This document shows, piece after piece, positions 9,800-14,534 of a stretch of DNA of 64,000 nucleotides. Position 1 is the first letter of the stretch; each line of letters begins with the position of its first letter. Below the pieces are notes generated by a model. That model was given only the letters and a program-made list of their open reading frames with translations, was not told where the DNA came from and made no database searches. The position numbers were made by a program, and so were the translations under genes. The DNA lies in NCBI RefSeq assembly GCF_056712565.1, contig NZ_JBWXXM010000002.1. One strand, 5' to 3'. The stretch comes from a plasmid.

Positions 9800-10840
9800 A
9801 TGGTTTCCACACACATCGGCTTCCCGACTGAAACGGTCATTGTTTTCATTGCGCTTTCAGTCGGTGCCATCTTTATTGACCTGTTTATGCACCGTGATGA
9901 CAAGCCCATTTCCCTGAAGAGTGCGGCGCTCTGGTCCGTATTCTGGGTTGTGGTTGCGATGGCATTTGCCGGTTTCCTCTACATCCACCACGGTGCTGAG
10001 GTTGCCAGCCTGTTTGTAACGGGTTATGCGCTGGAGAAAGTGCTGTCGGTCGACAACCTGTTTGTCATGATGGCCATCTTCTCCTGGTTCGCCGTTCCTG
10101 ATCGTTACCGCCACCGTGTTCTCTACTGGGGGATCATTGGTGCCATCGTCTTCAGGGGCATCTTTGTCGCCATCGGTACGAGCCTGCTGAGTCTGGGGCC
10201 GTATGTTGAAGTTGTCTTCGCTATCATCGTCGCCTGGACGGCGGTCATGATGCTTAAAAGCGGTGATGACGATGATGAAATTGAGGATTATTCCCAGCAT
10301 CTGGCTTACCGCATGGTTAAACGCTTCTTCCCTATCTGGCCGAAGCTCAGAGGTCATGCTTTCCTGCTTAACCAGAAGGAAGTGGATGCCGAACTGGCGA
10401 AACCAGAAAACAGCGATGTCACCATTGGCCGTGGTAAAAAGGCGGCGCTGTATGCGACCCCTCTGTTCCTGTGTGTGGCCGTGGTTGAACTCTCGGATGT
10501 TATGTTTGCGTTTGACTCGGTACCGGCAATCATTGCCGTCAGTCGTGAACCGCTTATCGTCTATAGTGCCATGATGTTTGCTATCCTGGGCCTGCGTACT
10601 CTGTACTTTGTCCTTGAAGCACTGAAACAGTACCTGGTTCATCTGGAGAAGGCCGTTATCGTGCTGCTGTTCTTCATCGCGGCAAAACTGGGCCTGAATG
10701 CGACCGATCACATTTGGCATCATGGTTACAGCATCGCGGCGACAACCAGCCTGTATGTTGTACTGGGTGTTTTGGCGCTGGGCATTCTCGCAAGCGTCAT
10801 GTTCCCGGGCAAACCTGAATCTGAGGAAAAGGGGAGCTGA
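9800..10840 (+). CDS. terC: Tellurium resistance membrane protein TerC
   Basis: ORF 346 aa, multiple hydrophobic helices. Confidence 0.9.
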   Translation: MVSTHIGFPTETVIVFIALSVGAIFIDLFMHRDDKPISLKSAALWSVFWVVVAMAFAGFLYIHHGAEVASLFVTGYALEKVLSVDNLFVMMAIFSWFAVPDRYRHRVLYWGIIGAIVFRGIFVAIGTSLLSLGPYVEVVFAIIVAWTAVMMLKSGDDDDEIEDYSQHLAYRMVKRFFPIWPKLRGHAFLLNQKEVDAELAKPENSDVTIGRGKKAALYATPLFLCVAVVELSDVMFAFDSVPAIIAVSREPLIVYSAMMFAILGLRTLYFVLEALKQYLVHLEKAVIVLLFFIAAKLGLNATDHIWHHGYSIAATTSLYVVLGVLALGILASVMFPGKPESEEKGS

Positions 10841-10888
10841 TCCCCTGAAGTGTTAACCTGAACAATTACTAATCGAAGAGGTTATTTT

Positions 10889-11467
10889 ATGAGTGTTTCT
10901 CTTTCCAAAGGCGGGAACGTCTCCCTGAGTAAAGCAGCTCCGTCAATGAAAAACGTCCTGGTGGGCCTTGGCTGGGATGCGCGTTCAACAGACGGTCAGG
11001 ACTTTGACCTGGATGCTTCAGCATTCCTGCTGGCCGCAAATGGCAAAGTGCGCGGCGATTCAGATTTCATCTTCTATAACAACCTGACGTCATCTGACGG
11101 TTCCGTAACCCATACCGGTGATAACCGTACCGGTGAAGGTGATGGTGATGATGAATCGCTGAAAATTAAACTGGACGCCGTCCCGTCTGATGTTGACAAG
11201 ATCATCTTCGTTGTCACTATCCATGATGCTCAGGCTCGTCGCCAGAGCTTTGGTCAGGTATCCGGTGCGTTTATTCGCCTGGTCAATGACGATAACCAGA
11301 CTGAAGTCGCTCGCTACGATCTGACCGAAGATGCGTCCACTGAGACTGCCATGCTGTTCGGCGAGCTGTATCGCCACAATGGTGAGTGGAAATTCCGCGC
11401 AGTGGGCCAGGGTTATGCTGGTGGTCTGGCATCTGTATGTGCTCAGTACGGCATTAACGCGTCCTGA
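10889..11467 (+). CDS. terD: Tellurium resistance protein TerD
   Basis: ORF 192 aa; [13 protein letters not shown] motif. Confidence 0.9.
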
Positions 11468-11534
11468 TCGAAAAGTAACTTTTCACCCGGGGCTGTTAAT
11501 GCAGCCCTCATTCAACTGTTTGCAGGAGCTAAAA

Positions 11535-12110
11535 ATGGCAGTTTCTCTCGTAAAAGGCGGCAACGTATCTCTGACCAAAGAAGCACCAACCATGAATATC
11601 GCTATGGTTGGCCTCGGCTGGGATGCCCGTGTAACTGACGGTCAGGCTTTTGACCTGGACGCTTCCGTGTTCGCAGTAGGCGAAGACGGTAAAGTGCTGT
11701 CAGATGCGCATTTCATTTTCTTCAATAACAAAACCAGCCCTGATGGCGCGGTAGAGCACCAGGGCGACAACCGTACCGGTGAAGGCGACGGTGACGATGA
11801 GCAGGTCAAAATCGATCTGACCAAAGTCTCAGCAGATATCAAAAAACTGGTGTTTGCCGTTACCATCTATGATGCAGAAGCGCGTAAACAAAACTTCGGC
11901 ATGGTGAGCAACAGCTTCATGCGCGTTTACAACAACGACAACGGCACGGAAATTGCCCGTTTCGATCTGTCTGAAGATGCCTCAACCGAAACCGCTATGG
12001 TCTTCGGTGAACTGTATCGTCATGGCGCTGAGTGGAAGTTTAAAGCTGTCGGTCAGGGCTTTGCCGGTGGCCTGGCGGCTCTTGCCTCCCAGCACGGCGT
12101 TAACATCTAA
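11535..12110 (+). CDS. terE: Tellurium resistance protein TerE
   Basis: 191 aa from ATG 11535 (MAVSLVKGG...); paralog of TerD. Confidence 0.9.
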
Positions 12111-12127
12111 AACAACGCTGAATCATA

Positions 12128-12152
12128 CCCCGGCAATGCCGGGGTTTTTTTT
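12128..12152 (+). terminator. Rho-independent terminator after terE
   Basis: CCCCGGC/GCCGGGG stem followed by T8. Confidence 0.6.
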
Positions 12153-12424
12153 GGTTGCGATCCGCTTTCAGGAGGGAGTAGTAGAAAGGGGACTGGAAAT
12201 TTCAGAAAGCAGGTCATGTTAATTCAGACCTGAGCCTTTTAAAGGCAGGAAACGGATTTATCTCTGGTTGCTGGTTAAAGCCGGTATTCCGTGCCTTTTA
12301 TCAACAGAATGCCCCTCTGATATATGTTACTTTTGCGGTTTATGAAGGAACGGGATCTGGAACATAAGATACCCGGTCAATCAAAATTCCAGTTCAACAG
12401 GTATAGAAACTTCAGCGTGATGAA

Positions 12425-12443
12425 ATATGGTGTCACACCATAT
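12425..12443. promoter_or_regulatory. 19-bp perfect palindrome upstream of terF (candidate operator)
   Basis: ATATGGTGT-C-ACACCATAT, about 95 bp upstream of the terF start. Confidence 0.3.
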
Positions 12444-12538
12444 ATACGCCTCACCAGAAATCCAGCGTCCTGAACTAAGCCTGGGGAACATATATAAGCG
12501 CTGCGCTTTAAAAATAATCAAAAATCAGGAGAGTTAAT

Positions 12539-13780
12539 GTGAATCTACAATCCGGACAAAACATACCGCTTCAGCAATCTGCGATCAGGCTGAATCTTCA
12601 GTACCCTGCCAAATCCGGCTTTAAAGGCGAACCCGATACCTGCCTCTTCCTGCTTAATGCTCAGGGAAAGGTAACCGGCGATTCTGACTTTATCTTTTAT
12701 AATAATCTGTCTTCTCCTGAAGGGGCAGTAAAGCTCGTTACCGGTTCTCAGCAGTCCAGCATTGAGATAGCACTGGATCGTGTTCCGGCGAACGTCAGTA
12801 AGATTGCGATCACCGTTGTCATTGATGGTGAAGATACTATCAGTGGGCTCAGTTTATTGAGCATTCAGGCTCCTGGTATCGCTGATTTTCAGGCTGAGAC
12901 TCAGGGCCGCAGTGAGAAAGCAATCATCCTGGGTGAAGTATATCGGCACAATGGCGCCTGGAAGCTTCGTGCGCTCGGGCAGGGTTTCAACGGTGGTCTT
13001 GAGCCTCTGGCCATTAGCTTTGGCGTTGATGTCGCACAGCCAGCTCCGCAGCCAGCAAAGCCTGCTCGTATCAGTCTGGAAAAGAAACTTGAAACCAGAT
13101 CTCCGCGCCTCGTAAGCCTCGCTAAAAAAGCCTCGGTCAGTCTCACTAAAAATAAACTGGACACCCTTGAGGCAGCGGTTGCATTTGTACTTGACGCATC
13201 CGGCTCAATGAGTGGCCAGTTCAGTAAGGGCAACGTTCAGTCTGTGCTGGACCGCATCGCCGTTCTTGCCGCCCAGTTCGACGACGACGGTGAAATGGAT
13301 GTCTGGGGATTTGGAGAGAAGCACAAGAAGTATCCAAACGTCACACTGGACAACCTGGACACATATATTCAGTCCATTCGCGGGTCTGGAAAGCGTTCAG
13401 CCTGGGAGAACCTGCCGGGACTTGGTGGGACAAACAATGAGCCCCCTGTGATGGAAGAAATTGTCGACTACTTTAAGGACTCGAAAATCCCGGTATATGT
13501 TGTATTTATTACCGATGGCGGGATCAGCAAGACCCGGGCGATTAAAGATGCAATCCGGCGTTCTGCCAACTACCCCATCTTCTGGAAGTTTGTCGGCCTG
13601 GGTGGTTCAAGCTACGGTATCCTCAAAAATCTGGATGACTTTACTGACCGCCGGGTTGATAACACCCACTTCTTTGCCATGGATGATTTCGGTTCGATCA
13701 GCGATGAAAAGTTATATGATAATTTACTGGAAGAATTCAGACCGTGGATCGATGAAACAAAAAGGTTAGGCATCCTGTAA
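12539..13780 (+). CDS. terF: TerF: TerD-domain / vWA-domain fusion protein
   Basis: ORF 413 aa starting at GTG 12539 with GGAGAG RBS; N-terminal TerD-like region, C-terminal vWA-like region (VLDASGSM). Confidence 0.8.
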
Positions 13781-13870: not shown

Positions 13871-14002
13871 ATGGACCGCATCAAGTACCTGAAATGGATA
13901 GCTGAAGAATCACCAACTGATGATGAAATCGACAACTACGATAGTATCATTAGTCGGGGCGCAGAAAGGGCCGAGAAGGTTCAGTTGTCTTTAAGACGTT
14001 AA
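13871..14002 (+). CDS. Small ORF (43 aa) with strong Shine-Dalgarno
   Basis: ATG 13871 preceded by GGGAGGAG; MDRIKYLKWIAEESPTDDEIDNYDSIISRGAERAEKVQLSLRR; ends 14 bp before the IS66 insertion. Confidence 0.3.
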   Translation: MDRIKYLKWIAEESPTDDEIDNYDSIISRGAERAEKVQLSLRR

Positions 14003-14108
14003 TATACGGGAGTTTAAATGTTCGTAAGCGTAAACTGACCGCCGTATGTAGCCATCAGACGAGAATTGGTAACTTAGACGCCCATCTGATATAGACGGAC
14101 ATCTAAGT

Positions 14109-14534
14109 ATGGAATTACAGGACTGGCGAAAAGAACCTCGTAAAAACTATTCGAATGAATTCAAACTTCGTATGGTGGAACTGGCATCACAACCTGGAGC
14201 TTGTGTTGCACAGATTGCACGTGAAAATGGCGTCAATGATAATGTTATTTTCAAATGGCTCAGGCTCTGGCAGAACGAAGGGCGTGTTTCGCGGCGTCTT
14301 CCGGTAACGACCTCTTCTGACACTGGCGTTGAATTATTACCTGTAGAAATAACGCCGGATGAGCAGAAAGAACCTGTGGCGGCCATTGCGCCGTCTTTAT
14401 CCACTTCCACTCAGACCAGAGTCAGTGCCAGTTCCTGCAAGGTGGAATTCCGTCACGGTAACATGACGCTGGAAAATCCATCGCCAGAGCTGCTCACGGT
14501 GTTGATCCGTGAACTGACCGGGAGGGGAAGATGA
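14109..14534 (+). CDS. IS66-family accessory protein (orf1)
   Basis: ORF 141 aa; position and sequence typical of IS66 orf1. Confidence 0.85.
   Translation: MELQDWRKEPRKNYSNEFKLRMVELASQPGACVAQIARENGVNDNVIFKWLRLWQNEGRVSRRLPVTTSSDTGVELLPVEITPDEQKEPVAAIAPSLSTSTQTRVSASSCKVEFRHGNMTLENPSPELLTVLIRELTGRGR

Follow-up and report, generated by a model that had tools for sequence, protein, structure and literature searches.

The ter cluster of an IncHI2-type plasmid raises the question of how terF, its vWA-domain gene, is transcribed, since an intrinsic terminator and several hundred untranslated nucleotides part it from terE. The cluster is contained in the window, i.e., the whole stretch of 64,000 nucleotides that was analysed. 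In the RefSeq annotation of an identical plasmid, terZ, terA, terB, terC, terD and terE precede a 'vWA domain-containing protein', which is the terF ORF. The terE CDS (11535-12110, + strand), taken from the ORF list and from this annotation, encodes a TerD-family protein of 191 aa (Pfam TerD, E 1.2e-85), and the terF CDS (12539-13780, + strand), obtained in the same way, encodes a 413-aa protein composed of TerD and vWA-TerF-like domains (Pfam PF02342 and PF10138) and starts with GTG. The distance from the terE stop to the terF start is 428 bp, 385 bp of which extend from the end of the T-run of the terminator. An earlier note, made from the sequence alone, had suggested that this leader and two palindromes embedded in it placed terF under a regulation separate from that of terZABCDE. 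The 428-bp interval was found to be 100% identical in many plasmids of about 190-370 kb from E. coli, Salmonella, Shigella, Enterobacter and Klebsiella, and the divergent alleles retrieved were typed IncHI2A.

The GTG at 12539, which the earlier note had taken as the terF start, agrees with the RefSeq annotation of the identical plasmid. A GGAG is placed 7 nt upstream of this codon, within the Shine-Dalgarno sequence AGGAGAG (12527-12533, + strand), which was read from the sequence and is invariant across all alleles. An ATG occupies exactly position 12539 in five of the eight alleles, GTG being found in the window's allele, L003 and L004, and therefore the position of the start can be considered secure. 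The sequence around this GTG also presents an out-of-frame ATG-TGA 'start-stop' (12537-12542, + strand) that overlaps the start codon. It is a product of the same A-to-G change that gave rise to the GTG and is missing from the ATG alleles; lying 5 nt past the Shine-Dalgarno core, it might rival the GTG for ribosomes at initiation. No strong terminator was detected downstream of terF. The gene that follows (13871-14340 in the window, compared with L003:4261-4716) has its first 46 nt in common with L003 and then diverges completely, being a 43-aa ORF in the window and a 151-aa version in other IncHI2 plasmids, and this abrupt loss of similarity marks a breakpoint, of recombination or deletion, near position 13916.

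The terminator after terE

The terminator scan and the folding analysis both located a strong intrinsic (Rho-independent) terminator between terE and terF (12127-12153, + strand), where the earlier note had placed one. It is composed of the hairpin ACCCCGGCA-A-TGCCGGGGT and a run of eight T residues. In the scan, the element was reported as ACCCCGGCAATGCCGGGGT followed by T8, with 8 pairs, 7 of them G-C, and a loop of 3 nt, and its folding energy was -15.3 kcal/mol. The structure starts 17 nt downstream of the terE stop codon and was the sole strong forward-strand terminator found in 7100-12200, the region that extends from terZ through terE.

The conservation of this element was assessed in 79 terF loci fetched from other species, 51 of which had a same-strand TerD-family gene within 900 bp upstream, and a terminator was scored when a hairpin of -8 kcal/mol or lower with a T-run was found at most 75 nt past the stop of this gene. 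An equivalent hairpin and T-run followed the terE-like gene in 40 of these 51 loci, usually with a CCCCGG...CCGGGG stem. The attributes on which its classification as an intrinsic terminator was based, namely the hairpin and T-run, the placement after a stop codon and the conservation in related loci, were all observed. The comparisons thus show the terE terminator to be an ancient conserved feature of ter loci; the terZ-promoter unit most likely ends at it, after terE, and terF is probably insulated by it from terZABCDE. The other Enterobacterales terE-terF junctions (L005-L083) resemble that of the window in gene order, in the GC-rich hairpin with T-run directly after terE and in a similar pre-terF ribosome-binding region, of the ACAGGAGGTTA type. 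They differ from it in the interval itself, since the gap in other species is mostly of 59-137 bp, or holds a gene for a 216-223-aa protein or its remnants, and the 385-bp spacer was present in none of them.

Internal terminators of this kind have a well-known precedent in the rplL-rpoB intercistronic attenuator of E. coli, which lies inside an operon and lowers the expression of the distal genes. The terE-terF junction resembles it in having a hairpin and U-run between co-oriented cluster genes, with an untranslated interval of several hundred nucleotides coming next, and also in that the distal gene is still expressed, which in the case of terF is read from purifying selection. Unlike the rplL-rpoB attenuator, the terE-terF spacer is lineage-specific and non-conserved, and it is known here from its sequence.

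Most of the RNA polymerases departing from the terZ promoter would stop at the terE terminator, and terF would consequently be insulated, expressed at a lower level and coupled only loosely to terZABCDE. The terF mRNA would probably derive from residual read-through and from initiation, weak and unregulated, within the final 255 bp of the spacer, which are richer in A+T. The reading that we favour, and hold to be reasonably probable, is that of a conserved terminator, a lineage-specific and near-neutral spacer of about 385 bp and a conserved ribosome-binding site and terF start, which together would give an insulated, low and loosely coupled expression of terF.

Another account would be that terF lacks a promoter and is reached by read-through only, the spacer being inert filler, such as an old insertion scar or a gene decayed past recognition. 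This account, which we regard as unlikely on the whole, draws on the fact that in many of the other-species loci the next start codon is just 14-40 nt past the T-run, where there is little room for a promoter, so that read-through would be the simplest ancestral route of expression for the downstream gene, as the favoured reading also has it. It has to contend with the quantity of transcript, since an efficient-looking U8 hairpin followed by 385 nt of untranslated RNA, inviting Rho-dependent termination, would leave very little terF mRNA from read-through alone. The gene, on its side, is under purifying selection, its identity to the O104:H4 allele being 0.976, 0.990 and 0.918 at codon positions 1, 2 and 3, respectively, and therefore it must be expressed.

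Distribution and divergence of the spacer

The spacer was found in 1204 records of plasmids and in 962 of E. coli, and it was limited to IncHI2 plasmids and to E. coli chromosomal ter islands (O157:H7, O104:H4, O103:H2, O111, O145 and others); blastn revealed no similarity to the 428-bp interval in any of the 79 other-species terF loci. When metagenomes were scanned for alleles of greater divergence, the same allele groups were obtained again, and for this reason phylogenetic footprinting stays shallow. No spacer matches were seen outside the ter context in E. coli genomes and plasmids. The possibility of a repeated or mobile element was discarded, as the spacer has no paralogous copy in the window.

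In seven loci, which belong to Lelliottia, Citrobacter, a contig labelled Chryseobacterium, Escherichia sp. ESNIH1, Rahnella and Shewanella, the corresponding gap is occupied by a gene whose product, of 216-223 aa, has predicted membrane segments. This gene (MAKKK...RDYGY; L005:2335-2982, L012:2325-2981, L024:2300-2968 and L040:2327-2974) begins about 13-30 nt past the terE terminator, and no Pfam family above threshold was found for its product. Decayed remnants of it were recognized by the DNA profile in four other loci (L008:2788-3000, L011:2554-2766, L035:2660-3000 and L049:2167-2453). The occurrence of an extra gene in some loci and of its remnants in others indicates that the terE-terF junction is a variable slot, which is in keeping with a spacer that is mere filler crossed by read-through.

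The derivation of the spacer from this 216-aa gene was considered and rejected as undetectable, the tblastn matches being at chance level only. Searching the six-frame translation of the spacer with the protein profile of the gene gave -1.8 bits, and 191 of 300 shuffled sequences scored as well. The DNA profile (nhmmer) detected the true remnants with 5.9-48.5 bits and had no match in the spacers of the window and O157. The fact that the profile searches detect true gene remnants and leave no trace in the spacer counts against the notion of filler left by a decayed gene.

Overall, the spacer is about 84% identical to the chromosomal alleles, and the allele comparison divided it into two parts. 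The 5′ part (12154-12283) is hypervariable and purine/G-rich, being a hot spot of indels and IS insertions, and it presented 71% identity and 8 gap columns relative to O104:H4. The 3′ part (12284-12538, + strand), with about 42% G+C in the G+C profile, presented 90% identity and no gap columns in the same comparison, and single-base indels only in other alleles; a promoter belonging to terF, if there is one, would be located in this part. The identity to O104:H4 at four-fold-degenerate sites was 0.906 for terD, 0.779 for terE and 0.880 for terF. By this measure, the spacer appears to drift roughly at the synonymous rate, its 3′ part being conserved no better than silent sites. A purine/G-rich stretch at 12169-12223 (GGAGGGAGTAGTAGAAAGGGGACTGG...) accumulated 23 mismatches and 5 gap columns per 60 nt relative to O104:H4, diverging faster than four-fold-degenerate sites and far more than its surroundings, and slippage or the scars of IS insertion and excision may account for it.

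Moreover, the terminator and the first 115 bp of the spacer have received independent insertions of IS4, ISEc20 and IS66. IS4 was found within the hairpin of the terminator, where 11 bp of the target, CGGCAATGCCG, are duplicated (L004:1044-2511, O22:H8), ISEc20 adjoins position ~12203 (L087:71-1500, O103:H2), and IS66 is placed after ~12224 in an Enterobacter plasmid that lost terF (L088:2614-5015). There is also a 41-bp insertion at ~12275 in L004, and all four insertions are upstream of the last 255 bp. The poverty of this last segment in indels and insertions can be taken as a weak hint of constraint, for example on a promoter or a 5′ UTR, and it is mainly because the insertions spare it that an internal promoter is kept open.

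The insertions bear on both routes of expression. In O22:H8 strain 154 and O103:H2 strain 12009, IS4 and ISEc20, respectively, separate terF from terE, yet terF is intact, as a promoter of its own would permit, and this is difficult to reconcile with an expression supplied by read-through only. A spacer that is near-neutral, that tolerates IS insertions and that has no predicted promoter is, in turn, what would be expected if read-through were the sole source of terF mRNA.

Promoter search and palindromes upstream of terF

The proposal of a separate regulation amounts, in its strongest form, to a dedicated terF promoter in the spacer, in which a 19-bp dyad would serve as operator for a dimeric regulator of plasmid or host origin, so that terF would be switched independently of terZABCDE, in response to tellurite or phage stress, for instance. 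The evidence gathered makes this quite improbable. The promoter scan revealed no forward-strand sigma-70 site with at least 9 of 12 matches in 11900-12800. The best weight-matrix score in the spacer, 8.4, was equal to the median of random 460-nt windows, 54% of which reach this value; these scores are approximate, and such scans would miss activator-dependent and non-sigma-70 promoters. No promoter or transcription start of terF was found for the IncHI2 ter cluster in the literature searched.

The region upstream of terZ offers a comparison, as it is also an intergenic region with dyad-symmetric sequence preceding a ter gene. Unlike the terF spacer, it contains a good sigma-70-like site with an extended -10, TTGTCA-16-TATGAT preceded by TG (7468-7495, + strand; 10/12 matches, score 13.96), which was the best candidate for terZABCDE and the only good promoter match of the ter unit. 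It also contains two candidate TerW boxes, ATCATNNNATGAT (7313-7325 and 7483-7495, + strand), which are the only two exact occurrences of this sequence in the 64 kb; the copy at 7483-7495 overlaps the predicted -10 element. TerW, the known regulator of the ter cluster, is reported to protect a palindrome of the regulatory region preceding terZ (Valkovicova et al. 2011, as related in PMC7843439). The two copies of ATCATNNNATGAT are probably the TerW binding sites of the literature, an identification drawn from the description in PMC7843439. The dyad of the terF spacer, ATATGGTGTCACACCATAT, is a different sequence and exists in one copy, and the best TerW-box-like site in the spacer had 3 mismatches, which corresponds to the background level. 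The possibility that the 19-bp palindrome is itself a TerW site was rejected, as its sequence and spacing differ and it has no box-like match.

Both palindromes recorded in the earlier note were recovered by reading of the sequence and by the repeat finder. The longer one, ATATGGTGT-C-ACACCATAT (12425-12443), is a perfect 19-bp palindrome of 9+1+9 with 100% complementary arms, and the shorter one, AAGCGC-T-GCGCTT (12496-12508), is a 13-bp palindrome of 6-1-6. When the spacer was shuffled 5000 times with its dinucleotides kept, 54 of the shuffled sequences contained a perfect inverted repeat whose arms were 9 nt or longer and whose loop did not exceed 5 nt (p ~0.01). The number of such repeats expected per 64-kb window was 1.86 +/- 1.68, and five were observed, including the 19-bp palindrome and the terE terminator. 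Once the search of the whole window is allowed for, the 19-bp palindrome alone is not significant, though it is locally unusual.

In addition to its perfect and locally improbable symmetry, other features of the dyad could be accommodated by an operator. Its position coincides in part with that of a sigma-70 candidate (TAGAAA-16-TATGGT, score 8.06) which, although weak, is among the two best, and it is contained in the 3′ part of the spacer, where indels are almost absent. The absence of a forward-strand promoter passing the scan and a matrix score at the background median tell against such control. Similarly, the dyad has no second copy in the 64 kb, even with up to 3 mismatches allowed, and it does not resemble the candidate TerW box; among the properties looked for in an operator, the symmetry was found, and neither extra copies nor a match to the TerW box were. 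A comparison by eye with the consensus sequences of CRP, LexA, OxyR, sigma-54 and sigma-E sites gave nothing convincing.

The alleles are also informative about the dyad. The 19-bp palindrome is perfect in all plasmid alleles, and all chromosomal alleles carry the changes T12426A and C12436T, at positions that are not partners, which leaves 7 of the 9 symmetric pairs. These 2 changes in 19 nt (10.5%) are equivalent to the divergence of about 10% in the surrounding 3′ spacer, and hence the dyad symmetry was not kept more strictly than its flanks, in a comparison of low power comprising about four allele groups. Several of the chromosomal strains with the altered dyad have an intact terF, which indicates that a perfect dyad is dispensable for keeping the gene and further weakens the case for an operator. 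As for the 13-bp palindrome, it is short, almost every other allele has A in place of G at position 12498, and the chromosomal ones differ at 12507 too, so that its perfect form is confined to L004 and the allele of the window. From these comparisons, both palindromes are most likely incidental, and they would not be operators. Two imperfect 50-bp direct repeat units, about 56% identical, are found in the same region (12408-12457 and 12458-12507, + strand; repeat families D1 and D7, both with a 50-nt spacing), and their significance is doubtful because Tandem Repeats Finder reports none.

Since the spacer and its dyad are absent from all the other-species terF loci sampled, a control of this type would be recent and lineage-specific. 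The corresponding version, in which the last 255 bp would be a stress-responsive terF promoter recently acquired by the lineage of IncHI2 and the E. coli ter islands, with the dyad as its operator, was judged decidedly doubtful.

The spacer could also act through a product of its own, either a small protein or a small RNA, or through its structure, as a cis-regulatory leader that senses a signal in the manner of a riboswitch or an attenuator, and this was deemed highly improbable. Two ORFs do exist in it, one on the forward strand (12324-12473, 49 aa) and one on the reverse strand (12381-12521, 46 aa), and in RNA the palindrome could fold into a hairpin of 8 bp. Neither ORF had a Pfam match, both are interrupted in other alleles, where stops or frameshifts occur, and the substitutions in the forward 49-aa ORF were distributed as 7/4/4 over the codon positions, with no third-position bias. 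Searching Rfam revealed only weak, sub-threshold terminator look-alikes at 12080-12156, and no unusually stable fold of the spacer was detected, the z-scores being -1.38 on the forward and -1.73 on the reverse strand. Besides, the two changes in the palindrome are non-compensatory, and no T-run follows it.

Expression of terF and its place in the ter cluster

Transcription data from O157:H7 touch on the coupling of terF to the preceding genes. In a microarray study of the Sakai strain, terZ, terD and terE fell 5.9- to 7.4-fold on entering stationary phase, and terA and terF were unchanged (PMC2241611). According to PMC2241611, which cites Taylor et al. 2002, terZ, terD and terE are constitutive, and terB, terC and terF are induced by tellurite; the membership of terF in this tellurite-induced class is a further point that a promoter and operator of its own could claim. 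The O157:H7 expression data agree, weakly, with an uncoupling at the terE terminator; the support is weak because terA, terB and terC, which are inside the operon, also differ, and because terF is truncated in O157:H7. In the O157:H7 strain FRIK2455 (L002:2920-3306), the first 306 nt of terF are the same as in the intact gene of O104:H4, after which it gives way to unrelated sequence, so that O157:H7 is without the vWA half of TerF. The break adjoins a transposase fragment and the iha gene, and what is left is annotated as a 128-aa 'TerD family protein'.

The suggestion that terF is regulated apart from terZABCDE can thus be retained in part. An insulation of terF is likely, in view of the strong conserved terminator and of the terF transcript levels in O157:H7, which do not follow those of terZ, terD and terE (PMC2241611). 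Control by the palindromes and a promoter belonging to terF are the portion that found no support, considering that no forward-strand sigma-70 site passed the scan, that the dyad has a single copy and that its symmetry is broken in chromosomal alleles.

If a palindrome-controlled terF promoter were real, it would provide a handle on the function of this TerD-vWA protein, a possibility that the evidence does not favour, and a dedicated stress-responsive promoter would turn TerF into a module of the Ter system with a switch apart from the rest. The terE-terF interval appears instead to be a largely ordinary feature of a long-known operon and matters little beyond annotation, with terF residing in a slot that has been repeatedly filled, emptied and struck by ISs. 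Such a variable slot behind a terminator fits the truncation of terF in O157:H7 and the report that terF is dispensable for resistance to tellurite, phage and colicin.
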